The translations under genes were made by a program, and so were the position numbers. 64,000 nt of DNA from the NCBI GenBank assembly GCA_017499595.2, contig CM039004.1:2604001-2668000 (forward strand). The letters run 5' to 3'. This stretch comes from Psilocybe cubensis. Its lineage: Eukaryota. The notes under the pieces were generated by a model. The model saw only the letters and a list, made by a program, of their open reading frames with translations, was not told the DNA's origin and ran no database searches. Of this stretch, positions 17,696 to 59,452 are shown piece by piece; within the stretch, counting starts at the first letter, position 1; every line of letters starts with the position of its first letter.

Positions 17696-20671
17696 TCAAG
17701 GTCGTACATATCCGTCGTGATCATTGTCGTCCTCCTCACGCGGTGTCAACATCTCCCCGCTCGGTCTGCGCTGGTCGTCCTCGACCCCAAATGACGGTCT
17801 ACGAGCAGAAGGTTGCCGGCTCTCTGGCTCGTCGCGGTACTTGGGCGTTAGTCCCGCAGATGGTTCATCATCGTCCAAGAAGCCAGAGTGGAAACCCAAT
17901 CCGCGCGCAGAGGGCGGGTTCACATTGGTGTCGTCCCTTCTCTCCCTATCCACGAGGTTATCAGACGATGAAGGCTCGCCGAACGAATCGTATAGGGCGC
18001 GCGTGGTACGTGGCCCACCGCTGCCTGCGATGACACGGCTCCTACTTTGTCCATCGATCGCGTCCATGCTAATGTCGTCCGCCGCGAGGGAGCGGTATTC
18101 TGCTAGCCTGAGGCGGTCCGCACGGCGTTTATAGAAGTAGGCGAGGGCTGCGAGGCCAAAAACGACAACGGCGCCCAGAGCAGCGAAGAACCACTTCTGC
18201 GCAGACATGAGGCTGGACATATGATCATACCACGCTTTGCTGGGTTCGTCGTCTCCTGCCGTGTTGTCGTCTTGCTGGGGCTTGCTCGGAGGCTTGGGTT
18301 TGTTCGATGGCGAAGGGAAAGCGGCTTTGGTGTTTTCTCCCGTTGCATGGCCATGGTCTTCTGGAAGAAGATCTGTTGGTTTCGCGTGTTGGGTGGACGA
18401 GATGAGGTCAGGATCGTTTGGCTCTGGCCGTGGTGGCGTGTCCTCTGGTGGGAGGGCGTTGTCGATAACGGGTTCTACCAGCTTGGTCGCCTTTGTGGGG
18501 TCAATGGCGCTTCCCCAGAGAACCATGTTCCACCCGAGGAACTTGCCATGTTGCTCAGGGTCGTTTTGATCAAAGACGCGTAGTGTCCACTCTCCAACTG
18601 GATTTTCACCCCTATAGAATTGAACACATCAACACTCCATTGTGAATCAGGTCAAATATATGCGCCATACCAGTGTTTGACTGACATGAACCTCCATCCA
18701 GGGAATCCAGTGTCATCCTCATCCTCCTCGCGCGTGCTAGCCAAAATACTCCTGATGCCATTTGGACTCTCGATCTCGACCTCCACATCTCCTCGACGCG
18801 TATGGCTGATCCACACCCTCACATCAACATGCTCAAGACTCTCTAAATTGTTCTTCAACATCATCTCCTTCGTAATCATCATCTTCTGTTCAACACCATC
18901 TGGACCTATCGGCTCGCCACCTTCGTATCTGTAATTCCTATGCGGCAAGCTGTGCATCCGCCCGTTGTTGACGATGACGGTGTCCGTAAATAGCCATGCC
19001 TGGGGTTTGACAAGTTGCCAGGATTTTGCAGCTGTAACATAAGCGTACGCGTCGATTGCGCCGTACCCGTACTTGTAGCTATAGAGTCGACCACTGGCTG
19101 TCTTTTCCCAGTCGGGGTCGTTTGGGTTAACCTTGCGTGCAGTTTCGACGCAGAGATGTTGGATGTCCCGCCACGTAAGGTCAGGTCTGCGTTTATGTCT
19201 ATGTAAGTGGCGTATCAAAGTGAAAAAAAGCAATCTTCCGTACCGAGCTTGTAAAGCCAAAGCAAATACTCCAACTGCATTCGGCGCAGCAGCCGATGTA
19301 CCGCCATGGGTCATGGCGCACTCATTGTCCCTATCTGTGGTGACCTAAAACGATCATGATGAGTACACATATCATTCGATAGGTGAATTAATAGACTCAC
19401 AATGTGATTTTTGCTTCCCGAGCTATACGCAACAATCATGTTTGCGGCACAAGCTTCCGAGTAATCCGGGTGCAGGCCTTTCCAGTCAATCGACGACACA
19501 GTTACCGAATAAATGCTGTTGGTGTATCCGTCGAAGTTACACTGATCTTGGTGTCGCCCACCATTGCCGCTAGCAAACACATAAATCGAGCCTTTGCCGT
19601 ACCGTCCGTTATTGATACCATTAACCACTGCCTTTCTGATGAGATAGTTTGGCCCGTCCATAGTTTGTCCGTTATCTCGTGGACCCCAACTGCAGCTGTA
19701 GAGCGAGACATCTTTGTATCCATAGTTGAGCGCAGCAGCCTCGTCCACCGTTGAGATCTTGCCGCCCAGAATGCGCACCCCTGCTGCTTTGGCATCGTAG
19801 GCGATTCCAACACCACAAGCATTGTTTCTCCTTGCCGCCACTTGCCCAGCACACCTTGTTCCATGGTGGTCACGGGCACCTGTCGGTCGAGGTAGGTCTA
19901 CATGGGCATTGAAGTCATACGAGTGTTCCGCGTCCTAATAGGAGAATGGCATTCAGTAAAAGGTTTGAACACATAAAACGTAGAAATAGTATTTACGAAA
20001 GCATCTCTGAGATCATCACTCTCAAAATCTAGCCCATCATCCAGAAAAGACGTCAAAACGCCCTTTCCCGTTAGACCCATGTCCCATACGGGAGTCACAT
20101 TCATCATATGCTCTGGGTAATCATCGTTGACTAGATGCCATTGCGCTGTGAAAAGTGGATCGTGCAAGCCAAAATGTTCCGCCGCTCCTTGTGCAGTAGG
20201 TCGTGTCGGAGGTCGTATTGGCGGCGGAGCGCGCTTGACAAGTTCTTTCGGGGTCTGTAGCTCCAGGTAGTTGACAGACGATACCACTCTTTTGGCGTGC
20301 AGCACATCCTCTGACCGTGAAGTTAATGGTGAACTGGCCCGCTGCTTTAGGTCTTGGAAGGCAGAAATTACAGGGTCAAGCACATCTTCGTCTTCGTCTT
20401 CTCGAAAATCGAGGGCTTTTCGATCGAAGGTGTTGTTTTCGGTTTTGGGAACCCGCACAAGCCACACATCCTTCAGTTCTCCAGCTTGCTCGACAACCTC
20501 CACCCCCAACGCGCTTGCTACTTCTTCAAGGGATGCACCCAGTCTCTCGTCGAATTTATGTTCCAATGCATAATATCTATGCGTGTCATAATGGCGTTTG
20601 GCAGGCTTGGCAAGGACGCTCGTGGTCGTCGATAGAGCTGTAGAAGCCAGGCAGACCCAGAGGAAGCGCAT
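17696..20671 (-). CDS. KEX2: Kexin-type subtilisin proprotein convertase, paralogue 1
   Basis: Signal peptide, prodomain ending LVKR|APP, FLDDGLD, HGTRCAG, ASGNGG, HGGTSAAAP, P-domain (LEHVDV, RRGDV), TM helix, acidic tail GFHSGFLDDDEP. Confidence 0.94.
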
Positions 20672-21205
20672 TCCTGACCAGCAGATGGTGGCGGGAGGTT
20701 GATAAAAAGCACAAATGCCAGGGACTAACGGAAATGCCAATTCTTACACGAGAGTCCGTCGTTGCTGGGCCCGGGCGCATAGCCCGGATAGCCACACTTG
20801 TAGAAATAGATCATGATGGGACATATGTTACAGATGTCAACCCCATACGCCGAGCTTAACGTGAGCCAATCATCTCGTGACCATTTTACGCGCTGAGAAC
20901 GCGAAGAAACGTTCGTGTCTGCATTCTACCATAAGAGGGGTACGATACAGTATTGAACAAAAAGAATTCAATTAGATGTACATGCTCCTTAGGCACTGCA
21001 ATAAATCCAGGTAAATATAATATACACACATACATGTAGCCAATGGTGGGCTGCCTGTACATTGACAAGATGCCAGTCGTTTAGTACGACTTCTAATGTA
21101 CTCGAAGGTATTCGTCGAGCAGCTAGTATACACAAGCTCGAATACTGAACGTTAAGAAACGTCCTTTTAGTTAAATAACGGATGTCGGATCACAGCCAAG
21201 GTATC

Positions 21206-24098
21206 TCATGGACGGGGGTCTGGGAACGAGCCAAAGCCTCCAGTCGGGTGTGAAGACGCGGGTGGTATTTCTGTCGGACTGCGCAGCGAGACGTGAGTAA
21301 ACATTTCAGGATGGTCGCGATAATTGGGCGATAGGCCAGGAGACGGTTCATCATCGTCGAGGAATGACGAGTGGAATCCTAGCGTTTGAGGGTTTGGTGG
21401 GACGATGGTATGGTCTTCTTCTGAAGAACGTCGCTCCATTGACGCTCGTGGCGACGCGTCTTCATCCTCTGCTTCGTCCACGAACCTGACGCTCCTCGTC
21501 GAACGTGGGCCTGCACCTCCGGCCAAAACATCGTTTTGCGCTACAGAGTCCATGTGTATGTCATCCGCAGCCAGAGACGTGTATTCCTCCATCTTCTTCC
21601 GTGCGACTCGTCTCCTCCAGAGCACGATCAAGGCGCTAATAAAGCAAACCAAACCGGCTCCAAGCGCAGCAAACGTCCATTTATGCGTTTTCGCCATGTT
21701 GGTAAGTTCACCGTACCAAGTCTCTTCTGAATCCTTGTCTACTTCATCTTGCTGCGGCTTTGACTTGCTGGGAGTCCCGGTAGGGAAAGCTGGATGAGAG
21801 TCATCGCCAGTAACCTTCCCATGGTCAGTTGGTAGCCGGTCTGTGGGCTTGGCGTGGACTGTCGTCGAAGTTGGGGCAGGGTCATGAATAACAGGACGAT
21901 CAGGAATATTATTTGGTGGCAAAGCATTATCCTCAACAGGTTCCACGAATTTCTGTGCTTTCGCTGGATCAATCGCACTACCCCAAAGTGCCATGTTCCA
22001 GCCCAAAAATTTCCCTGTATGATCTGGGCCAGGATTGCCCTTATCAGTCACTTTCAAAGTCCACTCGCCGACAGGATTTTCGCCCCTAACATCAAATTGT
22101 TAAGAATAAATCAAGCAAAGAAATTGCGATGAAGCGTACCAATGCTTAATTGTCATAAACCTCCAACCAGGGAAACCAGTATCTGCATCGTCATACGCTC
22201 GAGTACCGGCCAGCACGCTCGTGATTCCGTTTGGACTGACGATCTCCACCTTGACATCCCCTCTCCTGGAATGTTCGATCCATACCCTTACGTCCACGTG
22301 CTCAAGCGTCTCCAGATTGTTCTCCTTCATCATCTCTTGTGTGATGGTCATCTTCTGTTCATACACGCCCATCCCGATCGCTTCTCCCCCTTCGTAACTG
22401 TACTTTTTGTGCCCGAGCGAGGTCAGCGTTCCATTGTTAACAACGACGGTCTTGGTATGGATCCATGCTTGTGGTTTGACGAGCTTCCAGGATTGTGCGG
22501 CTTTAACGTAAGCATAAGCATCGAGGGCCCCGTATCCGTACTTGTAACTGTATAAACGCCCGCTGGCGGTTTTCTCCCAGTCAGGGTCTTCTGGATTAAC
22601 CTTGCGCGCGGTTTCCACACAAAGATGTTGTATATCTCGCCATGTCAGGTCTGGCCTAAGTTGATGATAAGATATATGATTAAAACTTCAAGATTATTCG
22701 TACCGCGCTTGCAAGGCTAATGCAAAGACACCAACAGCATTCGGTGCGGCAGCCGACGTTCCACCATGAGTACGCGCGCATCTATTTTTGCCAACATCCG
22801 TTGTCACCTACAAATTGTAAGCTCGAAAATCTAAGCATTCGAAAACACAAGGCTCACAATATATTTCTGGCTCCCTGAACTGTATGCAGCTATCATGTTC
22901 GCCGCACACGCCTCCGAATACGCAGGCTTCTTGCCTGTGTGATCAATCGCTGACACTGTCACCGAATATATGCTATTCGTGTACCCATCATAATTGCACT
23001 GGTCCTCTCCAATACCCCCATTCCCGCTCGCAAACACAAACACGCTACCCTTCCCGTCTCTGCCCTCGTTGATGCCCTTCACAACGGCTTTGCGGATAAG
23101 ATAGTTTGGCCCCTCCATTGTCATCCCATCATCCCGGGGGCCCCAGCTGCAACTGTAGATGGATACGTTTTTAAAGCCATAGTTAAGCGCGGCCGCTTCG
23201 TCGACGGTGGTAATGGGCCCACCGAGAATACGCACCGCTGCGGCTTTGGCGTCATATGCGATCCCCACTCCGCAGACATCGTTGCGCCGCGCCGCGACTT
23301 GTCCTGCGCACCGCGTGCCGTGGTGGTCGAGCTCTGTGACAGGGCGTGGTAGATCGACATGGTCATTGAAGTCATAAGAGTTTTCCGCGTCCTATTCGAA
23401 AATTAGCACTCATATAAAGGAGGCGGATATGATAAAATGAGACTTACAAAAGCATCCTTCAAATCCTCGCTATCAAAATCTAGCCCGTCGTCCAAAAATG
23501 AAGTTAAGATGCCCTTCCCAGTGAACCCCATATCCCACACCGGTGTCGTGTTCATCATATGTTCAGGGTGCTCGTCGTTGATCAAATGCCATTGCTCCCC
23601 AAACAACGGGTCCTTAAGGCCCAACCTCTTCGCCACATCCATAGATGACCCTGGTTGTACAAGCGGCGGTGCGCGTTTCACGAGCCACTGCGGCGTCTGA
23701 GCTTCCAAGTAGCTAACAGAAGATACAACCCGTTTCGCTAACAAGCTCTCTTGTGAGCGCGAGGACAGTGGAAGAGCCGCTCGTTTCTGCAGTTCTGAAA
23801 ACGCAGCAATGACAGGATCGCCTCCGTCTCGCTCGACGACGCCTTCCCGGGCCTTCGGTACACGCACAAGCCATACATCGTCCAGTTCACCAGCCTGTTC
23901 AACAACCTCTACACCCAATGCCTGCGCAACCTCCTGCAAACTCGCACTTTCCGCCCCAGGTACGTGTTCCAGCGCATAATATCTATGTGTGTCATGGTAT
24001 CTCCTGGTTGGTGGTCTAGCAGCGTTAGCGTGGTCGGCGACTAGACCAAGCACACTTGCAAGTGCGAGAAACCGGACGGCTTGCAGCACAGCTGGCAT
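21206..24098 (-). CDS. KEX2: Kexin-type subtilisin proprotein convertase, paralogue 2
   Basis: Same architecture, intron pattern and catalytic motifs as paralogue 1; tail GFHSSFLDDDEP. Confidence 0.94.
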
Positions 24099-25875: not shown

Positions 25876-26825
25876 ATGTCTTCACTTTTGAAAGCAAGCT
25901 CAATATTAGAGCCCTCGATTTATACAACAATATCAAAAAATCTCTACTCAACAAAGCGAAACATATGGGCTAATGCTCAAACAGCAGAATTTGTAGCTTC
26001 AGCAAATTCGATTTCAACCATTCCGAAATCTACCGGGTTACCAGAGGTAAAGTAACGCGTATATGGTCAATGGAATAAAAGACTCGACGTCACTCTGACC
26101 ATAAGAACTTCTAAAGATCGTAGTTACAGGTTAGTCGCGTCTGGCAACTACCAAAACGGATTGCTGACACCTAATTGTAATATACCAATAGGACGTGCCA
26201 ATGTTGGAAAATCCACGTTGCTTAACTGTATTTTAGGAAGGAAATCACTTGTAAACACCAGTAAAAAAGCTGTGAGTCGAATGCAAATGTGAAGAAGAAA
26301 TCACTGACACAACAGATGATGAAGGGACACACAAAAGCTCTGAATCTCTTCCGCGTCGGGGCAGAACCCGGAAAGCTTATCCTTGTAGATGCGCCTGGTT
26401 ATGGTACTCGCGGAAGAGTCGAATGGGGGGAACTTTTTAAGCATTACATCCAAAACCGACCAGAGTTTGTGCCCTTCCACTTCCACTTACATTTAAATTA
26501 CTAATTTGTGCATAGACTCAAACGCGTCTACATCCTCTTCAATGCCAAACACGGGCTAAATGAAACTGACAAGCTCATGCTTGCTGCTCTCTCCTCGTCT
26601 CTGCTCTCCGAGCGCGGTGCACAAGCCTTCACACTGCAGTCCATAATCACCAAAGCCGACACAGTGCCTACAGCAAAACTACAGGGCACTATTTCTAACA
26701 TGAAAAAGGACATATGGGATGCGGCACCTCTCTGTCTACCTCCAATTATTACAAGTGCGGAGATGAGCCCACCGTTTGGGATCAATCAAGTGAGGCAGAG
26801 CATCGCTGAAGCATGCGGGTTATAG
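25876..26825 (+). CDS. EngB/YihA(YsxC)-family GTPase
   Basis: G1 GRANVGKS, G2 GHTK, G3 DAPGYG, G4 TKAD, G5 TSA; includes a 13-nt microexon 26117-26129. Confidence 0.9.
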
Positions 26826-28524: not shown

Positions 28525-30157
28525 ATCTACTTGATTTCAGCGACGTGTGGTAGAGTGATTAAAATAGCTCATGGTAGTTGAATGTTTGAGTGCGCACAGC
28601 GAGCAAATTGCACATGACAGTCTTCAATAAATAATAGATTTCATTTGTTTTATGGGTAACAATAGCTGACAATTGGGTCATGGTCGTTGTGCAAAAAATC
28701 TTCAGAGAAGTTGACTGAAAATTAAAATTGGTTAGAGAAACAAACGGATAACATGACTCACCACTATTGTTCTATAACATGATCGCAAGGAGCTGATAAA
28801 AATTACCCTAATCGACCAACAACGTTGAGTGACATTTCGCAAAAAACAATTGAATGGTTGCAAACCGTGAGAGGCACCTGTACCTTTAGACTCCGAAGTG
28901 GTGCGTGGTATGCACGCCTCTGGCGAAAAGGCCACTTTTGTTGTGTAATGAGGCGCCACACAGCATAGATTGCAACAGGACCATAAAGAATCGAATTCAG
29001 TGAGCTGTTTGAACGTGTGAATGAGTGACCGTGCAGTGTGAAGCAATAGAGATTACATCTCCTAGGGATATGTAGATATCCGATGAGGCTCAATCCTATT
29101 GTACTATGTTTTTATCATTGTACGTAGCGAAAACAGAAGATAAAGCGAACAGAAATACGTACAATAAATCCCGTTAACAACCTGTATCCTTGATCCTAAC
29201 ACTGGATCCAACAACACCTCACACTGCTAACATGGTTTTAGACAGTCATTCTTCTATGTTGTGTATTGCAATTTCGAAGGTTTTACGTAGTACCCAGTCG
29301 AACGACTTTGCGGTAATCTAGCGATTCGGATCCAATAACGATTTGACGTAAACGGGGGCAAGAATGGACTGGCTCAGAGAAGAGTGCATTGATAATGGGT
29401 GATTAGCACGAGCGTCATGGTGGTTTGCAGAAATATACTGTCTTTGTTTACGATATTATAAGCTGAAAGGCCATACTGGTTTACTGGTTTGAAAGAATGT
29501 TGACGGTCGAAGACTCGAGGAGAGCACATCACAAAGCGTGGGAATATATTCAAAAAAGTAAATAGGGGTGCAAGGGAGTGTCAAGGCCCCTGAGAGTCGG
29601 AGTCGCTGCCACAGTGCTTCACTAGTCACTCCTTGGTACGAGATTTCTACATAAGAGTTATATATTGCGCAGTAGTTTATAAATACTACATCCAAATATT
29701 TTAATTTGGGTGCTTATTTAATGATCGTGATGTTCATAGACCTGAACCGTATAGGTGAAGGTTGGTTCTGAGTTTACTTTCAAGACTCCCAAAGTTTTCG
29801 AGTCTTACCTCTTGCTTGAACACCAAATAATTGATGAAAAAGAACTTTTAAAATAAGATGTATGGTTCATTTAGATGCAGCTATTATGACAAACTTTGGC
29901 ACGCCACCGGTTAATGACAACTAAAAAAACATTGTCTGAATACAGGTAGGCTCAGAACAACCCGTTAGATCCATTAAGACTTGGTGGTGGTTTCGAGATT
30001 TGGAGCAATCCGCTGTTTGGCCAACATAATCTGCTTGCTCGTCGGTCAAAGTACGAACCAGTAGAAAAAATATAACAAAGAGACCGAAATCAAAGTAGAT
30101 GAGCGACATTCAGCAGTACTAGATAGTGGTTGTTGACCGTCTCGAGTCTTCAATTAT

Positions 30158-30275
30158 TCCCCAGAGACTTGATGCTTCCTATGCACACAACTCGTCGATT
30201 TGAGCATGCGTTAACATTAATCAAGCCGAGTCGAAGCAGAGCTGTGAGGGTAGTGTACCATCAAGACGCTGGGGA
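30158..30275 (-). ncRNA. Hairpin family copy 1 (candidate milRNA precursor)
   Basis: TCCCCAG/CTGGGGA, CTTGATG/CATCAAG and CACAACTC/GAGCTGTG stems; invariant 23-mer at 30167-30189. Confidence 0.55.
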
Positions 30276-30926
30276 GGAATGAGAGGACAGAGTGGTCAGA
30301 CCGCCTATCACGCCCCAATGGCAGCAGTGAATACTCCAAGAAAAAATGCACAGAGAAGTATGCAGAGTAACACACTGCCCAGAGCACCAAGTAAGAGACA
30401 GAATGGCAGACCCAAAGCGCAACGGATGAAACTGCATTTCCAATCACAACCAAAACCAGAATAGCGCATATATGCGGGCAGCAAAACAGATTAGAACCGT
30501 AAGCTGCAGCCTATCGTCGTGAACTAAATGGACACCAGAAAACCAACATGGGTTCCGAGTGCGCCGGCGAATGCAACAGATAGCATGAGAGAGGGAAGTA
30601 GACCGAGAAACGGCGCATATATGCGCATACATAGCAGCATAAACCCTATGAGTTCCCCAATAAAATGAGCAGGCAGCAGCCAATACCAGACCCGCTTTAC
30701 ATCTTCTTTGAGGGGATGGAAGGGTGAGCCAGATGGGATGCCGTAGACATGAATGAACTGTACTTAGCTTGCTTGTATCTGCGCGCGGTGGTTTGAGCTA
30801 GCCTGGGCGCCTAGGCGATTTGCGAAAAATTGGGGAGTGAATTGGTTTGGTGCCAAAATAAGTCAGAGCGTATGCGACTCGTAAAGGATAGAGATGGTAG
30901 GCGAGGATGAATTGAAAGGCGAAAAT

Positions 30927-30982
30927 GGAGAGATGGTGGTGGTTGGAATGAAACCTGCATCGACGTGACGCCTGTTTAAATA
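30927..30982 (-). promoter_or_regulatory. Putative TATA box and leader of hairpin unit 1
   Basis: Minus-strand TATTTAAA (30982-30975), then about 32 nt later ACCACCACCATCTCTCC, identical to 58550-58566. Confidence 0.45.
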
Positions 30983-31388
30983 GGCGAGCCCACAGTTTGC
31001 GTCACAGAATATTCGAAATGTGGTTCCCGTCACAGCGGTTACCTCCTATCATTCATTGAGCTGTCTTCTAACTAGTCGAATGCCACTCAATTTGCTCGTG
31101 CAGTTTTCAAGGTTTCAAGCGTATCCAAACAGGCCACGCGAATCCGACTCAGTCCCACTAACTGCATAATCTGGGCTCTATCATCTGCTGACAAAAATAA
31201 AAACGGAGACATGTTCGTACGTCTTATGAAGGACCGGATCCAACTCGATTGTTTTTAAGTATAGTCAGAGGCAAAGAGATAGCCAACCAACACTGACGGA
31301 AAGGTAAAGTTGATTGAAAACATCGTACTAGGTAATTTCGACTATTTGTTGTTTCTTAGTCTGGCGCCTTCAGCTTGGATTCACTCCA

Positions 31389-31612
31389 TCAATAATCATC
31401 CATTTCACTGCCATGATCATCCGGGTCGCCGCCAAAGAATTCTTGGCCTTCTCCGTCGAGGTTCAAGTCATTATATCCCACGAGCCCCACTCCGATCTGC
31501 ACCACGTTTGCTGAGAGCAGTCTGCCACCGCAGCAATCAATGTTTGCACATTGGAAAATTTGCTAGAGTTTCTGAGAGCTGATACTACCGTGTCGGGTGG
31601 AAGTGGTGCTAT
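31389..31612 (-). pseudogene. Relic of F-box-like gene C-terminal exon
   Basis: VVSALRNSSKFSNVQTLI..QTWCRSEWGSWDIM* then shifted LDGEGQEFF aligns with VVEALRHSANFANLQKLV..QTWGKSEYGIWEMV..FDGEGWEYY of the 34248-35822 gene. Confidence 0.7.
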
Positions 31613-32257
31613 CTGAGCAAGTCGCATCAAACCCATTGACAATCACGATGGTTTGTCTAATTCGGCAATAATTCCCATATATAGGTCATTGCAATAGCCC
31701 CTAGCCCTCGCGTCTGGCAAGTTGGATTCCCTGCACCTGCAACTCAAACCTACGCCACATTTTCACAGACCCACATGTAACAGCACTGAAATATCAAAAG
31801 CGAGCAAGCCTTTCTGAGCGTCTCATCACGACTAGGAACGAGCTGGACGTACGCGTCGGGTTTATCGTAATGATGTGAAGTGAGAGAACATTCACAAAAC
31901 ACAAGGTCAAAGGCATCACTAATAGTAACAGTGAAAATCTGGGGCCACGCAAGACACTGTGATATAAAGGAGGAGCACGATTGCTATGAGTAAAGAAAAG
32001 ATAATAACATTGTTAATTAGAGATGAAGCAAAGTCTCGTTACACGGCATACCATTGTTATGACCACGTATGGCTGTAGCTATTTTCAATTAGGCCTGATC
32101 CAGAGGTTTGAAATGACCCCACCACAATGGCGGGGACACAATGGGCATTTATTGAGATGCAAACTTTGCAAACAGTAAATGGTCAACTTTTGGCAAGTTG
32201 AAAGAGAACAATCAAATATTGGGAGCAGAAAGTCAATCCAAATGCAACATCCTGAAT

Positions 32258-32378
32258 TCTTCCCCAGCGACTTGATGCTTCCTATGCACACAATCCGTTG
32301 ATTTGAGCATGATTTATCGCCAGTCAATCCGAGGCGCGGAACTGTGAAGGTAGTGTAATATCAAGACGCTGTGGAAGA
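32258..32378 (-). ncRNA. Hairpin family copy 2 (candidate milRNA precursor)
   Basis: TCTTCC/GGAAGA, CAGCG/CGCTG and CTTGAT/ATCAAG stems; invariant 23-mer at 32270-32292. Confidence 0.55.
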
Positions 32379-32795
32379 GTACAGAGAGAAGACATTTGAC
32401 TGCCATCAGTTTCAAGTGAGCCTGCAGACACAGCGCATAGAATAAGGCGGCAATGTATATATGCGCGGGGTGTCTGAAATCGACGAAGAACAACCCGAGA
32501 ATAAAAAATACACGAGGAGAAAGCGTGAAAGTTGCACCAGTAGAAGGATCAGTGCATATATGCGCACATCGGAGAGCGCTGGAAAGTCGCAGAGAACCCA
32601 CAAATGTCAGGAACAAAATTGGGAAAACATAAAAGCCAGATAAAGAACCCGAAAACCAGCGAAAACGTGCTTGTATATGCGCAAGCAGAGCAGCATATAC
32701 TTTCCAAACATTCGAGAATAGTGAAATTCAGCTGGTTGGGTTGAGACAAATGTCACCACGAGTACCCCCCGGAACGCGAGAGACGAAATCAAAAA

Positions 32796-32916
32796 CCTTC
32801 CCCAGAAACTTGATGCTTCCTATGCACACAGTTCGTCGATGTCAGCATGAGTTATCGATCAAGTCAGGTCAAAGAAGAGCTGTGAAGGTAGTTTACCATC
32901 AAGACGCTGGGGAGGG
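32796..32916 (-). ncRNA. Hairpin family copy 3 (candidate milRNA precursor)
   Basis: TCCCCAG/CTGGGGA, CTTGATG/CATCAAG and CACAG/CTGTG stems; invariant 23-mer at 32808-32830. Confidence 0.55.
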
Positions 32917-33704
32917 ATGAAAGCTCATCGTCCAACTGTCAATGATGGAAGGAGTGATAACTGAGAATGTATGCGCAGCTCAGAAGGAAGTGCATCAAAA
33001 CGTAGACCCAAGATACAAGTCAGAAGATAAGGAAAATCGCAAGGACAGCAGCAACAGCTCCCAGAAACGCGCATATACGAGGGATGCAGAGCAGTTTAGA
33101 GCTATAGCCCGCTTCTTATGAACCGCAGACTTTTAAATGGAAAACATGAAAAACCAAGAACCAGGCATAGAAAGTGAAATGCCAAATACACCTCAATGCA
33201 GCGAGAATATGTGCGTATATGCACAAACAAAGCCGTGTATCTTCTTCACCATGCATCCGAAAATAGGCAAGGTGCAACGGGTTGGGTCAAGCCAAATGGA
33301 AACAGTCCTACTCGTAGAGCAATACGTCGAAAAAGATCCAGAATCAGCGCATATATGCGCACCAGAGAGTCCTTGCCAAGAAACAGAAAAACAAAGGAAC
33401 CAGGTAGCAGTTGGGGCGTCATGTGGGTTATGAATTCCTCCAGTCAACATGACTTTAAATGATTTCATACGACTGTGAAAGGACCTGTGCATGTAGTCAG
33501 CTTGGTTGGGGTACGAGGGCGAAGGTAACCAGCCAGGGGCAATAGATATGAGTCCCACCCTCTCAGGCGGGTAAGGTTTAGAGACAACCTGTAAAAGTAC
33601 TTAGCTTGGGCGGGATACTAAAATGGAACTTTGTGAAACGATGTTTGAAATTAAGAGCGGGAATGCTTGAGTGTGAGTATATGTGGTGGAAGTATGGAAA
33701 AATC

Positions 33705-33771
33705 GAGGATTGTGGTGGTTGAGAGTCAAATGCGATACAAACGATGAGGAGGGCGTGACGAGGATTTAATA
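33705..33771 (-). promoter_or_regulatory. Putative TATA box and leader of the unit carrying hairpins 2 and 3
   Basis: Minus-strand TATTAAA, CGTCACG, then AACCACCACAATCCTC; same order as at 30.9 kb. Confidence 0.4.
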
Positions 33772-34247
33772 ATCTGGGCCGTGACGGCGCTGATGTAATC
33801 CGCCCACAACATGTCACAGCACACCATGTTTTTTTCGCCTTGCCACCTGCTCTTGATTTCGACCTCTAATGTACCGAATTCCATCGTTTGGATTCCCCTT
33901 CCTTGATGCTGTACAGGGTTTTATAAATTGAAAGGCTCTGTAGCCTGCACACTTTGTACGCACTCGCACCTACGATGCCCGTCCAAGGCGAAGCTTCCGC
34001 TGACTTGAACACTGACTACAACTCGTTTCTGGACGCGGAATAAAGGTTATTGACACGGCCACTGGTTAGCACCCTCAGCCTGACATACTCAAGTGGACCG
34101 TTTTATTCTCCAGTGTTACTGATAATATATTCAATGTTCTGATTACACGTAACTACAAACATTTAGGTACGTTTAATGTTCCAGTTGTTCCTTTGGCTAT
34201 CATCTTCAGCTAATCTGCAGTCTCGGATTCATCACTCGCGGAAGTGG

Positions 34248-35822
34248 TCAAATATCTATAGACGCCTCTTCCCCCTCCGTTATATCTCTCCGATCATCTG
34301 ATGTGTCTTCAAAGTCGCTGTAGTACTCCCAGCCTTCTCCATCAAAGTCAAAACTTGTTTCTTCGAGCACCATTTCCCAGATTCCATATTCCGATTTCCC
34401 CCATGTCTGGAAGCGTTCAAGAGTACCAACGACCAATTTTTGCAGATTTGCAAAGTTCGCAGAGTGCCTCAGTGCCTCTACGACATCCCAAAAAATAGTA
34501 TGAATTGGGTGCCTTTCATATTCTGTGTCAGTGACTAGCTCCAAGGTCCGCAAGGTCGGTGGTATCTTGTATGGGAGAGGTGCACTCAGAATGTGCAGGA
34601 TATTCTGACGCAATATTAATGAAATGCGCACTTGCAAAAATAGTTCAGCCAGACAAAATCAACTTACAAGGTAATGCAATGTATTGTATCTCTCTCTTTC
34701 TGCTTCGTCACGCAGATTGACGTCCTCATTCAGCTGAAACGGTGCAATGATAAGTCGCAACGACACTAAATGAGGGAATTCGTGAAACAGTGTTGGGAAC
34801 GTTTCGTCAATGCATGCACTCGCCGGCCATTGAGGACTCTCAAAGACTTCCACAGGCACGGTTCCTCTTTTAAAATGCTCCCTGATCCAGTCAATGCATG
34901 GATGCTCTAGAGCCCGATCAGGTAATTGGACGAGCTTGATCGTGTGCACCGGCCGACCTGTAATGATGTCTGCGGCGTAGTAGGCAGGTCCCGTGTATTC
35001 GGATAAATGTGGGCAGGCTGTGATAGAGAGATGCGCCTCTGGCGAGGGTCTTTCAAAAGCCACCTCGTCGATTGCGGTAAATTCGATACAGAGTTCCTGT
35101 AGGAGAGGGCACTGCTCCAAAGCGGAGTAGAGCTCGCGGTAGTGTCCTTTACCGGCAGAGATATTCAAGTTGGTCAGGGTGGGACAAACTCCAATCATGA
35201 GCTCAACGCGGAAGGTTGGGTTGGCCTCTTGTTGTAGATATCCCGTTAAATGGTCGAAGCAACGCAAGCACTTCGTGGTAATGGAAACAATGCAGTTGAT
35301 GAACCGCAGTAATTCCAGGTTGTCCAAAGTGTTCAAAGCTGTAACAGTCTCATCGTCAATGACAACGTTTGCCATAATGAGGCTCGTCAATCCGATGTAG
35401 AGCGGAAGGCTTGCTCTGAACAATGGCCACATCGCGTCAGCATACGTTCGCAAAAAAATTTTCTTTGCGCTCTCCTTGTTGACCAAATCAGGGGTAGTAG
35501 GCTGGGGCAAATATCCTATATAGTTCCAAAAGCGGACATGGCGCGCCAGAGGGCTCAATGGGAGCTCGGTAAACCTTCGGCGAGATAGTTCTTGCATTTC
35601 AATCACGGAGCTTGGGTATTGATGAGGTTCGACCTTGCTAAAATCAAAACGGTCTATCATGTTGTATGCTCTAAACATCAGACTTCGGAATAGAACAGGT
35701 CGAGCACTGTCCCGGATGTGCCGTGGCATTTCAGGAGAGCAAAGGGCGCGGACTTCATCAGGTGAGTAGCACTCGTCCGCAATCTTCGTCCATAGTTCGG
35801 CCGCGAGTTGATCCCACCCCAT
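34248..35822 (-). CDS. F-box-like/LRR-like protein, full length, 2 exons
   Basis: MGWDQLAAELWTKIA F-box-like start; LRR-like LTSLxMxNV, CPTLTNLNI, CPLLQELCI, CPHLSEYTGP; intron about 34667-34605; acidic C-terminus. Confidence 0.8.
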
Positions 35823-43541: not shown

Positions 43542-44794
43542 GTAAGTCTTTCATCTTTTCACAAGGCTTTCAGAGTACTGACATCACGTTGCAGTCTTCG
43601 ATTTAAGATTCAAACGTCCCGGGAACGCTATTAAGAAGATAATTAGGTATGTGACTTGACATGTAGTTTATCCCGTGTACTGACTGTGTATTAGATGGCA
43701 TATGGAAGCCATACGTCGATACCTAGGGAGGATAGAAGGTAAGTTTAATACCTTTCAGAGTTCTGTGTGTGATCTAACCTTGTTTATGTAGCCAGGATGC
43801 TCCGACGCTATATATCGCTTTCCGGCGACCGCCCTCACATTGGAATACATGTAGACAGCTAGGGGTCAGGTTGATCATGGTAAGTACATTACTTTTGTGG
43901 GTTCTGGATATGATCTGACCTTGATTTTGTCGATCAGACTGCCCCAAGATGATGTATCGTGTTCCCGCGACCTGCTGTTGCACCTCGAGACGATGTATGG
44001 AGGCCCCGCGATCCGACATTCAAACGACTCCATGTTTTGCCAGCGAGTCCCACCCCTACGCGATAGACCTGGTAAGTTTATAATCTTTCAGGGTGTTGGA
44101 CCTTTTTTGACCGTGTTTTTTGTAGCCAAATGCTCCGACACGACATATCAGTTTCCCGCAACCTTCACACGTTTGGGTATGCATTGATGGTTAGGCCTGT
44201 ATTAAGCCTAGGTTATGGTAAGTACCCTATTTGGGATGTGTTCTGACGTTGTTTTTGTAGCTCAGAATGCTGCGACACCATGTATCGCGTTCCCGCAAGC
44301 TACCCATCATTCCGGCGCCTTTGTCATTCCATCCAACACGATACAACGAGCCCCGTCAGCATGCAACGTTACGCACCCGCACCAACTTCCACGACCAGCC
44401 TGTTTTCATCAAGTACGTCTCTCGGCCACATACGCATTTCGCCCCAACACAACATGTCACCGTCCGGCGAGCTGGCACGTTGCTCCGATGCAACGTACAG
44501 ACATCCGGCGAGCTAGAGAGACAGGAAGGACCTTCCCCGCCAGGTGCAGACACCGTGTCGTATGTCCTGGTGACCTTTGCGTTGCCACGGTGTTGTACGC
44601 GTTAACACGTCATTGGACTTGTAAGCAATAACCATCTTTCCTGTGGTTAACAATGACTGACCAGCCTGTTTCCATCAAGTATCCGCACCAGCCAGTCTCG
44701 CAGCCACGCCCCAACACAACGTATTACCAAACGTTGGAGAGACTTGGGTAACTTGTAAGCAATCCCCGTCTTTCCATGGTTAACAATGACTGAC
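43542..44794 (+). other. Multi-intron repeat-built transcript or pseudogene with no long spliced ORF found (also 53720-54972)
   Basis: Six canonical introns (43542-43594, 43647-43694, 43739-43791, 43880-43937, 44072-44125, 44218-44260/65); exons begin with related TGCTCCGAC..TATCG..CCCGCRA motifs. Confidence 0.55.
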
Positions 44795-51700: not shown

Positions 51701-54700
51701 AGGCGTGTATACTAATTCCCCTTAAGAGCCGGAAACGCAAAAAATGGCAGAGGTATGTATGCCACGTCGTTGCTACGAGCCTGCAATATCTGCAATCGAG
51801 TACGTCTTACGGCGGCCTTCTGGGCTCTGGAGCACCGAGTTACAACGTGATTCGCTAGCCGAGGAGTTCTATACAGGTCTATATTAAGATACGGGAAGAT
51901 TGAACCGACGTAAATCGATGAATTGGGGGAGGTGGAGGGTGTTATTCGTTTGAATATTAAACTGTTTGCTTCTTTCTCTATTCAATTTCTGTCATTCCTG
52001 AGTAGAATTTCTGTCCTTGTACACTATAATATATGCATGAATGCTAAGTATTCTGCTGTGAATTCTGAAATGCTAGAAAACAGAGGTTTACGGGTCGTAT
52101 ACTGTTTTTACATCTCATTTTGCTTCGAATTAAACTTGATTCTTGAAATGCCGAATGTATTGATTAATTTTGTTTACTATCTACACTCCGTATAAGCTTG
52201 AAAGGCTCTTATGAACGCCGCAAAACTCCGAATACGTATGCCACGTCATTATATCTCTTACAATTTCACTCGCAAAATATAGCAGTTTTGACCTTGTGAT
52301 GGCTCTGAACAGCCGATGCACTAGTGTTATTGGATTTATGCATGCGATTGACTTGAGTTGGGCTCGCAATGTGCACACAAATGTACAACGGGGGTCGGGG
52401 AGCTCGTATATGTAATGTTTGATTGCCTGTTTCCGGGACAAAAATGTATGAGCGGGCCTTGACTAGCGTGTTTCCGAGCGCGTAAATCTCATATCTAGAC
52501 AGATAAACGCCACAGTTATCTTCTCAGAGCCTGAAATGTGACCTATTGCGCTCGTTAAACCTGGTTCTGGCTGATATAACTTGACCCTTTGAGTGGATTC
52601 ATCTACTGTGAACTCGGGTAAACAAACATAGGGCGCTTATTTAAATTATCCTAGAAAACACTACTGTCTGCAAGGTCTGATTAGCAGGTGCAATACTATT
52701 CAAACGACACTGTAGAATGACCTGGAAAGCACTTACGTAAAAGCGGGCCTGAATGTCAGATTAAGATTAGTTGACAATCGCGATTGGGATGCAAAAGTAA
52801 ATCGGGTGCGAGTCCGACTATCCCTAATGCGGATTCCTAGGAAGCAGCGGCGCTTATTGGATGTTACAGCATCTTTTTCTGTAGCATTTCGTCATTAAGT
52901 TAGTTGTGGCCATGGCCATTCAGCAGCCCTAAGACGCGTCTGACGCGTCGCGTCGCGTTCAGGTGACTTGAAACCTGGTTATTTTAGGAATACACGTTTC
53001 GCGTTCGTGTCGTGCCAGCGGGTGTTTTATTTTGAGTCCACCTAGCTGAGGCGGTTTGGGCCCGTATGAACGTAATGATGACTGAACGTTGTGAGGCAAC
53101 GTTCAACAAAACCACGGAGTTCTACACGAATGTGGATGTCCGGGTCTACAGTGTTACACCCAGCGGATGCTACATGTTGGATTGCGTACAAGTCTTGGAG
53201 TTCAGAAGCTAATACTCGGTCATGGAGTAAAAGGGGTGTTGTAATTTTGTTTGCTAAATCTACATGATTTTGGATACTAGGATGCGGATGTACTATACTT
53301 TTTCCAATGTATTGCATACTCCAATGAATAGAATCCAAGATTGAATGCAGAAAAGTGTGCCAAAGAAAAGCGGAATTGCACATAGCCAAGAACTCCTAAG
53401 AAAAGAGTTATGGCATTTCAATAGAGAAAATTTACTTGCCTCGTAATCTTCGGAAACGAAGTGCAGTGAAGCGAGGCTAGTGGAATTGATGAAGCTAAAG
53501 AAAATGGCCTGAGGTGCCAATTAAAATGCAATGCGACCCTTGGAAAAAAGGTATAAAGAGGGACTCACATTTCATTGACTCCAGCTATGCGTTATGCCCT
53601 AATGCTGGGGGCATGCCATTCCATTATTTCTTCGTTGTCGAGACTCGCCCCTATCTTGTGTTTGGCCATACCAAACATGATGTTGCGGCACGCGTCTTGA
53701 CCTTGATCTATGACCATGCGTAAGTCTTTCATCTTTTCACAAGGCTTTCAGAGTACTGACATCACGTTGCAGTCTTCGATTTAAGATTCAAACGTCCCGG
53801 GAACGCTATTAAGAAGATAATTAGGTATGTGACTTGACATGTAGTTTATCCCGTGTACTGACTGTGTATTAGATGGCATATGGAAGCCATACGTCGATAC
53901 CTAGGGAGGATAGAAGGTAAGTTTAATACCTTTCAGAGTTCTGTGTGTGATCTAACCTTGTTTATGTAGCCAGGATGCTCCGACGCTATATATCGCTTTC
54001 CGGCGACCGCCCTCACATTGGAATACATGTAGACAGCTAGGGGTCAGGTTGATCATGGTAAGTACATTACTTTTGTGGGTTCTGGATATGATCTGACCTT
54101 GATTTTGTCGATCAGACTGCCCCAAGATGATGTATCGTGTTCCCGCGACCTGCTGTTGCACCTCGAGACGATGTATGGAGGCCCCGCGATCCGACATTCA
54201 AACGACTCCATGTTTTGCCAGCGAGTCCCACCCCTACGCGATAGACCTGGTAAGTTTATAATCTTTCAGGGTGTTGGACCTTTTTTGACCGTGTTTTTTG
54301 TAGCCAAATGCTCCGACACGACATATCAGTTTCCCGCAACCTTCACACGTTTGGGTATGCATTGATGGTTAGGCCTGTATTAAGCCTAGGTTATGGTAAG
54401 TACCCTATTTGGGATGTGTTCTGACGTTGTTTTTGTAGCTCAGAATGCTGCGACACCATGTATCGCGTTCCCGCAAGCTACCCATCATTCCGGCGCCTTT
54501 GTCATTCCATCCAACACGATACAACGAGCCCCGTCAGCATGCAACGTTACGCACCCGCACCAACTTCCACGACCAGCCTGTTTTCATCAAGTACGTCTCT
54601 CGGCCACATACGCATTTCGCCCCAACACAACATGTCACCGTCCGGCGAGCTGGCACGTTGCTCCGATGCAACGTACAGACATCCGGCGAGCTAGAGAGAC

Positions 54701-58425: not shown

Positions 58426-58512
58426 GGAGAAAATTCTTGGGCGTAAGATGAGAAAACCGTGTGACGCGCACTGGAGGCGCATCACGGATGATGTCACCTG
58501 TCACATATCGAA

Positions 58513-58566
58513 TATAACTTGTCGAGGTTTTGGTGGGGGTTTGCTCTTGACCACCACCATCTCTCC
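58513..58566 (+). promoter_or_regulatory. Putative TATA box and leader of the third hairpin unit, divergent from the flavin reductase gene
   Basis: TATAA at 58513, then ACCACCACCATCTCTCC at 58550, identical to the unit 1 leader; possible intron 58663-58732. Confidence 0.45.
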
Positions 58567-59049
58567 CTTTGTGACATCCTTTTCTCGAGTGAGCTCTAAA
58601 TATCTGCGATTCATCCATATCAATCATCCATTTCTCAACACATCGCATAAGTGGCGAGTCTGGTAAGCCACACCTATTACCCGTTCGTTTAACCTGTTTG
58701 AGTCTATAATACTCGACAATTATCGATTTCAGAGATAACCAACCCTATGGGCGAGGAAATTTGTGGTTTCTTAGTCCTGCATGCGCATATATGCGCTTAT
58801 TTTTTAGCAGCACATCGGAATTCTATGCTGCTGTCGGCAGAATTTCACAGCTTTTTTGCGTATATATGCGCATATATGCGATGTGTGTGGCTTCCTCCCC
58901 TTGTGCCTTGTGTGCTCGTTTTTGCATTTCGGTTTCTTCAAACCTTTCTGGCTCGACGGTGTTCTACATGCGCATATATGCGTTGACTCTCGTTCTGGTG
59001 ACAGCTTTTATCCTTTGCGTTTTCTTTTTTGACTCTCGTACTATGTGTT

Positions 59050-59140
59050 ATTGGAGACAGGTTGCCTGCATCCCTCTGTCCCGCGCATACAAGGCCCTCC
59101 GCCGCTTTTGTGCCATGTGATGCACAGACCTATCTTCAAT
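59050..59140 (+). ncRNA. Distinct 91-nt imperfect hairpin
   Basis: ATTGGAGACAGGT/ACCTATCTTCAAT, TGCATC/GATGCA and GCATACAAGGC/GCTTTTGTGC stems, with G:U pairs favouring the + strand. Confidence 0.4.
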
Positions 59141-59177
59141 CTGTTCAAGGTTAAATGTTTGCAACTTGCGCCCATAT

Positions 59178-59272
59178 TCTTGATGCTATACCGCATTCAC
59201 AATTCCGTGCCTCGGACTGACTGAAATAATTCACGCTTTAATCAACGGATGGTGTCAATAGGAAGCATAACT
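59178..59272 (+). ncRNA. Hairpin family copy 4, degenerate and inverted
   Basis: Aligns end to end with the reverse complement of copy 2 (TCTTGAT..TTCACA.TTCCG.GCCTCGGA.TGACTG..AATCAACGGAT.GTGT..ATAGGAAGCAT); basal stem lost. Confidence 0.5.
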
Positions 59273-59452
59273 GTATCTTTTTTGGCACAAGTTGGCCGGC
59301 AATCACGTCACGTCTGCGGCGAGTCACGGCACATGACCAAGTTGAATATGCGGCGTAACGGGTCACATTCACAGGCGTGTTTCTTTTACTTGGACGGACC
59401 TCATTAGGAAGCGGGCTTGCCACATTCCATTCACACTGGACTCGGCCTGATC

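Follow-up and report, generated by a model that had tools for sequence, protein, structure and literature searches.

Fungi, to our knowledge, possess neither Drosha nor DGCR8, and we know of no answer to the question of how primary transcripts are handed over to Dicer in mushrooms. For a basidiomycete, Cryptococcus neoformans, Dumesic et al. 2013 are cited as a source on spliceosome-coupled RNAi (SCANR). Well-supported loci of fungal microRNA-like RNAs (milRNAs) are scarce: in the accessible part of the survey by Johnson et al. 2022 (PMC9757828), 15 of 1727 loci met strict plant-type rules, the duplex region of conserved loci was described as being under selection, and intronic loci were reported to be frequent in Cryptococcus.

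The window considered here, the whole analysed stretch of 64,000 nucleotides from Psilocybe cubensis, contains members of a multi-copy family with an invariant hairpin arm and with intact, decayed and hairpin-less paralogues. Such a family makes a ready natural test set. Its members share a palindromic word which is rare in the window and common in the genome. If this strand-symmetric word, with about 500 copies and a bias towards introns, serves as a functional site, it would represent a new class of cis-elements for Agaricales.

Results

The units form a local family of paralogues

Three loci had been singled out in the preliminary description because of their shared architecture. They are paralogues within a local family of duplicated, apparently non-coding genes (Table 1). 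The family comprises five units, five full hairpins, one decayed hairpin and one half copy, and a genome-wide search placed all five full hairpins inside 40 kb on one contig. Unit 4 is an inverted duplicate of unit 2 (98% identity); unit 5 has a motif cluster and no hairpin. Because the 5´ regions of four units align as homologues, the common layout is inherited rather than convergent, and architecture shared by descent does not make the units independent evidence of selection. Outside small elements the units are unalignable: among units 1, 2 and 3, blastn returns hairpins, leader, motifs with short flanks and nothing further. The proposed divergence between motifs thus holds at the sensitivity of blastn, although the 5´ regions are homologous.

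Units 2, 4 and 5 each start a few hundred bases past a protein gene of a fast-evolving family, which argues that the duplicated block consists of gene plus unit. A protein-coding, small peptide or pheromone gene was rejected as identity of the units, since no unspliced reading frame is conserved among paralogues, the frames of the hairpins having been read by eye. The longest unspliced ATG frames have 62, 99 and 109 codons at unrelated positions. RNA evidence comes from assembled contigs, and two presumed RNA runs proved to be spliced; run X5 does not cover the units and counts neither way.

Table 1. Coordinates of features in the window, and motif clusters in long introns of protein genes
Feature	Position or length	Strand	Remark
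Unit 1: promoter-like region, leader, T-rich intron-like tract, one hairpin	30150..30990	-	partial RNA-contig cover, run X1
Hairpin 1, unit 1; basal stem holds 3´ splice-site-like CAG	30158..30278	-	first base after CAG 30268, score 5.7
Invariant 23-nt 3´ arm, unit 1, candidate small RNA	30167..30189	-	starts with U on minus strand
Palindrome, unit 1	30464..30477	.	13 of 14 positions
Perfect 14-nt palindrome, unit 1	30613..30626	.	two overlapped GCGCATATA half-sites
CAAGCTAAGTAC, unit 1; homologue of branch point of short leader intron	30760..30771	-	aligned to canonical 45-nt intron of unit 5; splice signals look degraded
ACCACCAC leader, putative start region, unit 1	30927..30943	-	17 nt identical to 58550-58566
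Unit 2: promoter-like region, leader with short introns, two tract-plus-hairpin modules	32250..33800	-	
Hairpin 2b, unit 2	32258..32378	-	invariant arm 32270-32292
One near-perfect (32552) and two partial (32453, 32669) motif copies, unit 2	32453..32682	.	
Hairpin 2a, unit 2; acceptor-like CAG in basal stem	32797..32916	-	first base after CAG 32906; invariant arm 32808-32830
Three partial motif copies (32963, 33069, 33211), unit 2	32963..33224	.	
Perfect palindrome, unit 2	33347..33360	.	
Probable short intron, unit 2: branch point, CAG, weak donor	33485..33533	-	CAG score 5.6; absent from one RNA contig
CAAGCTAAG branch-point-like word, then acceptor-like CAG, unit 2	33589..33608	-	CAG score 4.6; donor search without a good candidate
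ACCACCAC leader word, unit 2	33712..33719	-	
Protein gene, fast-evolving family	34248..35822	-	no Pfam match
Unit 3: homologous promoter and leader, T-rich tract, decayed hairpin	58480..59290	+	donor-like GTAAGC at 58663
Motif cluster, unit 3 (58783, 58858-58881 tandem, 58970)	58783..58983	.	
Decayed hairpin paralogue, unit 3	59170..59270	+	no significant fold
Motif cluster, long intron of NSE3/MAGE-like gene	416 nt		domain support
Motif cluster, long intron of F-box/WD40 gene	941 nt		domain support
Motif cluster, long intron of DENN/SPA-like gene	657 nt		weak Pfam match, one side only

Leader and splice signals

The 17-nt leader identity between units 1 and 3 was confirmed, as was CAAGCTAAGTAC common to both minus-strand units. 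A TATA box as common element had to be abandoned: it is absent in unit 5, weak in unit 3 and itself an insertion in unit 2. The transcription direction originally proposed is probably right, judging from the T-rich strand, the splice signals and one RNA contig that lacks a short minus-strand intron; this contig derives from a diverged allele or paralogue. The word CAAGCTAAG looks like an intron branch point. In unit 5 the corresponding word, CAAGCTAA, is the branch point of a canonical intron (donor score 5.1, acceptor score 7.5).

The tracts preceding the hairpins resemble three long introns in base composition (A 0.16-0.19 and T 0.36-0.38 in tracts, A 0.16-0.18 and T 0.35-0.36 in introns). 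Since the RNA contigs list no joint across the tracts and the donors upstream of them are weak, the tracts are described as intron-like.

Hairpins and the invariant arm

Hairpins had been assumed at all three loci. The three hairpins of units 1 and 2, two of which belong to unit 2, fold better than shuffled sequences on either strand (z -2.6 to -4.3). Unit 3 carries a decayed version of the hairpin at 32258 (79% identity across 92 nt) that folds no better than shuffles (z 0.39 and -0.51). The CAG score of hairpin 1 falls inside the range of predicted real acceptors.

The arm is better conserved than loop and flanks: all 5 copies, of which three are independent, agree in 23 columns. A comparison of units 2 and 4 places none of the 22 differing bases in the arm and 8 elsewhere in the hairpins or at their base. 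The consensus fold pairs 14 of 22 arm positions, and some single folds pair more. Covariation in the hairpin alignment (5 rows) was not above that of shuffles.

Searches for relatives and targets were negative within their scopes. Besides the five copies, the genome holds no site within 3 mismatches of the arm, and the 103-kb neighbourhood none under penalty 7. Rfam gave no match at gathering score in the window and none at E up to 1 in 29800-34200. The hairpins have no conserved ACA, H or D box by eye, and snoRNA identity was rejected. A scan of metagenomes yielded 10 chance-like loci; a profile search of the 7 inspected revealed no family member (best E 0.019). Nothing relevant on the arm sequence was found in the openly readable literature, to which the search was largely confined. 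On the basis of its sequence, the family most likely provides primary transcripts for one microRNA-like small RNA, and its units would be candidate milRNA host genes.

The palindrome in the window and in the genome

All motif coordinates given in the preliminary description proved correct. Exact 13-mers of the palindrome start at 30464, 30613, 33347, 58783, 58868 and 58970; two variants start at 32552 and 58858. When up to 2 mismatches are allowed, the window contains 19 matches against 1.3 expected, a number that none of 100 shuffles reached. The palindrome consists of two overlapped copies of GCGCATATA(T). This half-site occurs 14 times in the 3.2 kb of the three units and 2 times in the remaining 60.8 kb, and no hairpin copy lacks a motif, full or partial, in the 600 nt upstream of it. 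By eye the full motif had been seen nowhere else in the window. Of the 19 loose matches 1 (18653) lies outside the units; the genome, however, contains the 10-mer 539 times (control 53, Markov expectation about 112).

Longer words are enriched as well, the 12-mer with 111 occurrences versus 6 and the everted palindrome with 48 sites versus 1, and repeat families inflate such long-word counts (17 of 71 loci in one set, 14 of 36 in another). The spacer TATA is found in 22 of 58 GCGCA-N4-TGCGC sites, a specificity that rules out a generic GCGCA stem with any loop. Among the 50 RYRCATATATGYRY sites listed, a GCGC half was counted by hand in 37, and only 7 have two such halves; the partner half is GTGC 13 times and GCAC 4 times. 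Plain symmetry cannot account for these counts, nor can a symmetric decay of CpG. Moreover, the word is held at the same place in two repeat subfamilies otherwise about 72-75% alike. Alternating purine-pyrimidine words are enriched in general; the motif 9-mer ranks 328 of 126,917 and is not in the top 14 of 505 alternating 9-mers. No record of the motif was found in print, again in a search of largely open literature. Of the earlier suggestion that the motif is selected, what is supported is that its occurrence is non-random and sequence-specific. The recurrence in the units themselves is no independent evidence of selection, as they are related by descent; 3 of the 22 differences between units 2 and 4 fall in motif copies.

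The motif favours introns

Introns were called with a predictor of our own. It reproduced 4 of 4 introns of the kexin gene, then misplaced the intron of the next gene and fused the two genes. On contig C1, taken whole and unselected, 15 of 42 motif loci lie in predicted introns against a background of 13.3% (P 2e-4), or 19.2% for words containing ATATAT or TATATA (P 0.009). The other 27 lie outside predicted introns, and five close site pairs fall in exon or intergenic calls. Both strands are used without bias (23 vs 19 in short introns, 16 vs 22 in longer ones). A stranded intronic splicing enhancer is not supported, the predicted introns showing enrichment and no bias towards the transcribed strand. 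A local RNA stem-loop under selection was rejected too, as G-U-compatible variants (5) are not favoured over incompatible ones (7).

Most sites are single copies in introns of roughly 55 nt. Clusters occur also in long introns of protein genes without a family hairpin (Table 1) and in genes with long low-complexity protein insertions; one long intron carries the motif in a tandem repeat. The homologue search with the NSE3-like exon matched 10 proteins and no DNA. The motif is no requirement of long introns, since the 9-mer occurs in just 1 of 24 other predicted introns of at least 200 nt, some of these predictions being doubtful, and its density in long introns is below that in short ones (11 in 768). 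When predicted introns were scanned for hexamers and heptamers, the 40 highest-ranking words included no part of the motif.

Discussion

We suggest, at about even chances, that the units are candidate host genes of a milRNA, spliced and of polymerase II type. On this reading their intron-like tracts gather a protein site that is general and associated with introns, and this site is no licence for the hairpin. Local duplication together with the neighbouring protein gene would have produced the paralogous non-coding units. Each would begin with a GTCAC-rich promoter-like region and a ACCACCAC start region, followed by one or two short leader introns, the first with CAAGCTAA as its putative branch point. 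Next would come a tract of 400-600 nt with the composition of long introns and then a hairpin of roughly 120 nt with the invariant 3´ arm. Paralogy, fold, invariant arm and splice signals are observed; the start sites, transcription by polymerase II and processing by Dicer are what we infer. Points against the milRNA part are the pairing of just 14 arm positions in the consensus fold, covariation no higher than in shuffles and the missing near-perfect target. Points against the motif part are its scarcity in other long introns, the general enrichment of alternating words, the 27 C1 loci outside predicted introns and the inflation of long-word counts by repeat families.

The half-site GCGCATATA(T) is a genome-wide, orientation-independent word, enriched in introns and piling up in some long ones. 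Most likely it is a binding site of a general factor acting within transcribed intron-type sequence, and its presence in the tracts probably reflects their being long introns or behaving as such. Double-stranded DNA or chromatin is a more probable target than folded RNA. Enrichment, intron bias and lack of strand bias are direct counts; the factor and its role are deduced from them, specificity and strand symmetry being compatible with a site for a transcription or chromatin factor. Of the original reading of the palindromes, a site for a protein is most likely the part that survives. A bolder version, which we regard as a long shot, is that an as yet undescribed mushroom factor marks intron-type sequence through GCGCATATA(T) and retains the splicing machinery where introns are long or weak. 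In the units, the spliceosome would then stall on a motif-rich pseudo-intron whose terminal 3´ splice site is masked by the hairpin, and the hairpin would pass to Dicer, resulting in a splicing-coupled route to microRNA-like RNA in a lineage without Drosha.

The other part of the original reading, an RNA element licensing the processing of the downstream hairpin, now deserves very little credence. The placement of motifs upstream of every hairpin copy and the density of half-sites in the units speak for it. A genome scan had been proposed to link motif clusters to hairpins, and the link largely fails: hundreds of sites lie elsewhere, clusters reside in hairpin-less long introns, and no family hairpin was found at any other fetched locus or elsewhere in the genome. 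The 13 candidate rods near 12 other clusters are mostly exonic or non-significant (one has z -7.3), the cluster of unit 5 lacks a hairpin, and the units are not independent. Alternatively, two self-complementary copies might pair as RNA and loop out 100-300 nt, drawing distant splice sites or the hairpin closer, like complementary intronic repeats in fish introns. Equilibrium folds do pair motif copies in unit 1 (0.88), unit 3 (0.5-0.8), unit 5 (0.89) and three long introns, and both orientations are in use. Palindromy alone, however, yields such pairing automatically; it is absent in 3 of 10 folded tracts (unit 2b, L111, L144) and weak in unit 2a. The solitary sites in short introns have no partner, and an exact sequence is preferred where pairing needs none, G-U-compatible variants being unfavoured. 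We consider this looping highly unlikely.

Two further explanations concern the motif and the hairpin. The motif may be a functionless mutational by-product: slippage and template switching would lengthen alternating purine-pyrimidine runs where T-rich sequence is unconstrained, with the word as a favoured end point and the unit clusters partly inherited from one ancestor. The finding would then reduce to an ordinary candidate milRNA cluster. Several-fold enrichment of many alternating words, some outranking the motif, fits this proposal, as do the clusters in genes with low-complexity insertions, the tandem repeat in one long intron, the decay of motif copies in unit 4 and the lack of the motif in most long introns. 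The TATA spacer, the skewed halves of RYRCATATATGYRY sites, the word kept in place between diverged repeat subfamilies and an intron bias persisting against matched words make us place it on the unlikely side. As for the hairpin, it might be no substrate of Dicer and instead serve a spliced long non-coding RNA as a structured exon or as a module that binds protein. Each hairpin starts at an acceptor-like CAG; on this view the hairpins would be exons, preceded by tracts that are true long introns. Acceptor scores at hairpin bases (5.7, 4.7 and 5.0 in units 1, 2a and 4a; median of predicted real introns 5.0) and large internal loops with invariant unpaired bases agree with this. Yet conservation of the CAG can also be explained by its place in the basal stem, the half copy reaches a score of -1.8, unit 3 has lost the CAG, and Rfam has no match. 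A small-RNA guide would be expected to show just such a single invariant arm of 22-23 nt with a 5´ U, and an exon module is distinctly unlikely.

Comparison with known systems

Fungal milRNAs, as far as the consulted portions of PMC9757828, PMC6145500 and PMC3547838 describe them, resemble the units in having intergenic hairpins of about 120 nt with one conserved arm. The unit hairpins match no milRNA sequence in 9 supplements of PMC9757828, in part of the Coprinopsis cinerea table (PMC6145500) or in a full-text search. The units, as candidate loci, differ in forming a multi-copy family whose spliced, T-tract-rich leaders suggest polymerase II, unlike the major Neurospora milRNAs, which use polymerase III according to the available text of PMC3547838. 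Animal splice-site-overlapping miRNAs (Mattioli et al. 2013, PMC3794580, in the sections accessible) share with the units a hairpin that overlaps a sequence resembling a 3´ splice site, which might bring splicing into competition with hairpin processing; the acceptor of the units, in contrast, is a predicted one.

SCANR of C. neoformans, in the excerpted review PMC5851062, shows how a basidiomycete can turn poorly spliced transcripts into small RNA, and the weak donors and hairpin-masked acceptors of the units recall it. That route produces siRNA via double-stranded RNA synthesis on transposon-like transcripts, whereas the units have a conserved hairpin arm, and the excerpt makes no mention of an intronic motif like the palindrome. 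Complementary intronic repeats that aid splicing (Lin et al. 2016, PMC4691745, as partially available) are likewise simple intronic words able to pair at a distance; our motif differs as a fixed word of 9-14 nt, mostly single-copy in short introns and without apparent placement at intron ends. In Agaricomycetes, atromentin synthetase genes have a tandem palindromic motif in their promoters (10.1101/2020.03.25.008516, in its accessible part) that is, like our motif, a mushroom palindrome and a proposed site for a dimeric factor. It has another sequence, lies upstream of the start codon and is cluster-specific, while the motif of the units favours introns and is spread genome-wide.

Family of units and its origin

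The hairpin-RNA units of the window are paralogous to each other and to two units beyond it. Their 5´ regions can be aligned among units 1, 2, 3 and 5; ACCACCAC is the same in all four, and words of the GTCAC type lie upstream. Ahead of the leaders, the putative start regions, the units have in common a TGAT/TGAC-G-T-like word and GTCAC words (window 33790-33801, 58496-58506 and 31006-30998; ~8325-8345 of locus L001, past the window); this resembles a bZIP-type site. Every coordinate of the preliminary description was correct, but the TATA-like box that it named as a shared part had to be dropped, because this stretch is not common to the aligned 5´ regions.

Unit 4, just past the window end, is an inverted duplicate of unit 2 (98% identity). 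Unit 5 begins ~8 kb past the window end, with upstream region and leader as in the other units. It has kept its tract (the T-rich, intron-like stretch that lies upstream of the hairpin elsewhere) with three motif copies, its hairpin is absent, and just after the first intron it is interrupted by a retrotransposon (G000:C7:2676599-2682110, from the end of L001 to L061) with terminal repeats of 417 nt, 100% identical. A second LTR-like insertion lies after the tract. The host genome (46.6 Mb, 21 contigs) holds five full hairpin copies, all within 40 kb on the window's contig. A profile search adds the decayed copy of unit 3 and, ~6 kb past the window end, a half copy (L001:5949-6042) with the 5´ arm only and a tract 77% like that of unit 2, immediately ahead of a further gene of the neighbouring protein family. 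A gene of this family, which has no Pfam hit, lies a few hundred bases before the start of each of units 2, 4 and 5; gene and unit therefore make up a duplicated block. Judging from the alignments, the common order of parts has an ordinary origin, inheritance, so the three units do not amount to three independent pieces of evidence for selection. The tandem duplication between units 2 and 3 (see table) is either very recent or an assembly artefact.

Features of the window, motif-bearing introns and loci
Feature	Position or length	Strand	Remarks
Unit 1	30150..30990	-	
Unit 2	32250..33800	-	
Unit 3	58480..59290	+	
Kexin-like protease genes, two, tandem	window 17696-24098	-	full-length; named from sequence
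RNA-supported intron	window 26464-26516	+	outside long reading frames; in X1 and X5
RNA-supported intron	window 28806-28865	-	outside long reading frames; in X1 and X5; between unit 1 and next protein gene
Tandem duplication	window 34831-58443		period 10,178 nt; 99.2% identity across 13.4 kb; stops just short of unit 3
Array inside duplicated block	window 43797-44513 and 53975-54691		six diverged 34-nt repeats, spacing 140-190 nt
Cluster intron, NSE3/MAGE-like gene	416 nt		MAGE positions 31-59 upstream, 140-207 downstream
Cluster intron, F-box/WD40 gene	941 nt		
Cluster intron, DENN/SPA-like gene	657 nt		weak Pfam hit, upstream side only
Cluster intron, membrane-protein gene	950 nt predicted, ~1.6 kb by eye		without domain support
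Cluster intron, further gene	459 nt		
Motif in COG3 intron	185 nt		domain continuity
Dispersed repeat family, everted palindrome	centres of L135, L139, L140, L142, L143, L146, L147, L153, L155, L157, L159, L162, L164, L165		directly behind 5´ splice-site-like word in both subfamilies
Repeat family with palindrome	centres of L002, L007, L008, L012, L013, L024, L045, L056, L062, L068, L073		mostly near contig ends
Single sites after predicted stop codon	centres of L003, L016, L033, L044, L059, L169, L179, L199		120-320 nt after stop
Motif-rich longer-intron genes	L006, L010, L020, L026, L111		proteins with long low-complexity insertions

Hairpins and invariant arm

A hairpin had been described at all three loci. 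This holds for units 1 and 2, whose three hairpins fold well above shuffles on both strands (z -2.6 to -4.3), but the unit 3 copy, a decayed paralogue of the 32258 hairpin (79% over 92 nt), folds no better than shuffles (z 0.39). A search of Rfam gave no match. One arm is invariant across 23 columns in all five copies, with U as first base on the presumed strand, and the 22 bases that differ between units 2 and 4 all fall outside it. We regard the copies as a good but unproven candidate family of fungal microRNA-like RNAs (milRNAs). A canonical miRNA is another matter: only 14 of 22 arm positions are paired in the consensus fold, covariation does not exceed that of shuffles, folding is slightly better on the opposite strand, and the genome search yielded no target site at up to 3 mismatches. 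Searches for the arm in the supplements of the eLife re-analysis, in full-text literature and in metagenomes gave no match.

Leader introns and transcription

Intron and exon calls come from a simple gene predictor trained on fetched DNA of this genome. They are approximate, because the predictor recovered four of four RNA-confirmed introns of the second kexin-like gene, all within its training set, but misplaced the intron of the next gene and merged the two genes. Since these four introns are missing from the assembled contigs of both sequencing runs X1 and X5, both runs are RNA. Window G+C is 42-55%, and by the predictor this fungus is intron-rich, with fungal-type signals and a median intron of 56 nt.

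In unit 5, a canonical intron of 45 nt (donor score 5.1, acceptor score 7.5; medians of predicted real introns 4.8 and 5.0) has the homologue of CAAGCTAAGTAC as its branch point. A good donor is also present at the aligned position of unit 3 (58663); unit 2 has the branch point and acceptor without a good donor, and the copy in unit 1 looks degraded. Units 1 and 2 are partly covered by contigs of X1. One such contig, from an allele or paralogue as it differs at several bases, lacks 33485-33533; this segment has a strong branch point and acceptor (5.6) at its end on the minus strand, and a weak donor in the window's copy. Minus-strand, spliced transcription of the units is moderately supported by this contig; among the RNA joints listed, none crosses a tract.

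Motif across the genome

Within the window, the 13-mer with up to two mismatches has 19 matches (1.3 expected), 18 of them inside the three units. On both strands genome-wide, and compared with the reversed word, the 13-mer occurs 61 times (control 5), the 12-mer 111 (6), the 11-mer 158 (13) and the 10-mer GCGCATATAT 539 (53; Markov expectation ~112). TATA is the spacer in 22 of 58 GCGCA-N4-TGCGC sites, and ATATGCGCATAT, the everted palindrome, occurs 48 times (control 1). Among 50 listed of the 130 sites of RYRCATATATGYRY, a hand count gave 37 with one GCGC half and only 7 with two, which makes the half-site the basic element of the signal and the palindrome an overlapping pair of such halves. 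Repeats inflate these counts: three repeat groups account for 17 of 71 fetched loci, and a single family for 14 of 36 everted sites. In the repeat family of the L002 group, the palindrome may encode a short conserved peptide.

The predictor placed 20 of the 71 loci with the 11-mer in introns, 13 in exons and 38 elsewhere. The unselected test, with every 10-mer locus of contig C1 (4 of 42 classified within other locus sets), gave 15 intronic, 9 exonic and 18 other loci. This intronic share exceeds the background (13.3%, P 2e-4), alternating words (15.2%, P 9e-4) and words containing ATATAT/TATATA (19.2%, P 0.009). Intronic sites are mostly single copies in introns of 50-70 nt; dense clusters lie in some long introns of ordinary genes, and the unit tracts match three of these introns in base composition. 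Sense-strand orientation is unbiased (23 vs 19; 16 vs 22) and the G-U-compatible variant is not favoured (5 vs 7). The motif is an undescribed intron-leaning word, and our literature search found no paper describing it. The 3´ ends of genes may be a second preferred place. The low-complexity insertions in motif-rich genes may point to local regions with raised insertion rate.

Interpretation

The likeliest reading, to which we give an even chance, is that the units are spliced non-coding host genes for one milRNA and that their intron-like tracts accumulate a protein site that is general, associated with introns and symmetric between strands. The units would be transcribed, presumably by polymerase II from the putative start sites, and spliced; Dicer would process the hairpin into one milRNA; and long intron-like tracts would gather a site for some binding factor. 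The basal stem of the hairpins holds an acceptor-like CAG (5.7, 4.7 and 5.0 in three copies), which may reflect pairing or splicing, and that these hairpins with their invariant arm are structured exons we consider rather improbable.

Selection on the motif, as claimed in the preliminary description, may be indicated by its sequence-specificity and by the fact that two diverged repeat subfamilies have both kept it. Several results run counter to our main reading. Among the 24 other predicted introns of at least 200 nt, a single one has the 9-mer, versus 11 hits in 768 short introns; five close pairs of sites lie outside introns; three motif positions are altered between units 2 and 4; and 25 random loci gave 4 hits (1 intron, 1 exon, 2 other). 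Alternating purine-pyrimidine words are generally enriched, and the 9-mer, found away from anchored sites 15 times versus 4.9 expected (top 0.3% of all 9-mers), stays outside the top 14 of 505 alternating 9-mers. That the motif is a mutational by-product seems unlikely to us. Its copies might also pair as an RNA zipper, and computed folds show them paired in 6 of 10 tracts; such pairing is automatic for palindromes, however, and we find the idea very unlikely. Most improbable is a dedicated licence for hairpin processing. With lenient settings, a scan for rods flagged 9 of the 12 other loci with clusters versus 4 of 14 random ones. Of 13 flagged windows inspected, 8 lie in predicted exons and one is made of motif copies themselves; three have z < -3, one strongly (z -7.3), an isolated hairpin ~680 nt from a motif pair (L152:2681-2815). 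None near other clusters belongs to the units' hairpin family by genome-wide search, and unit 5 has a cluster without hairpin, which argues against the licence proposed earlier.

Returning to milRNA host genes, the literature offers several parallels. In Cryptococcus, weak splicing is coupled to small RNA (PMC5851062). The hairpin-masked acceptor of the units is similar to animal-type splice-site-overlapping miRNAs (PMC3794580). The units appear to work like fungal milRNA loci (PMC9757828, PMC6145500, PMC3547838), for which we propose them as candidates rather than members.
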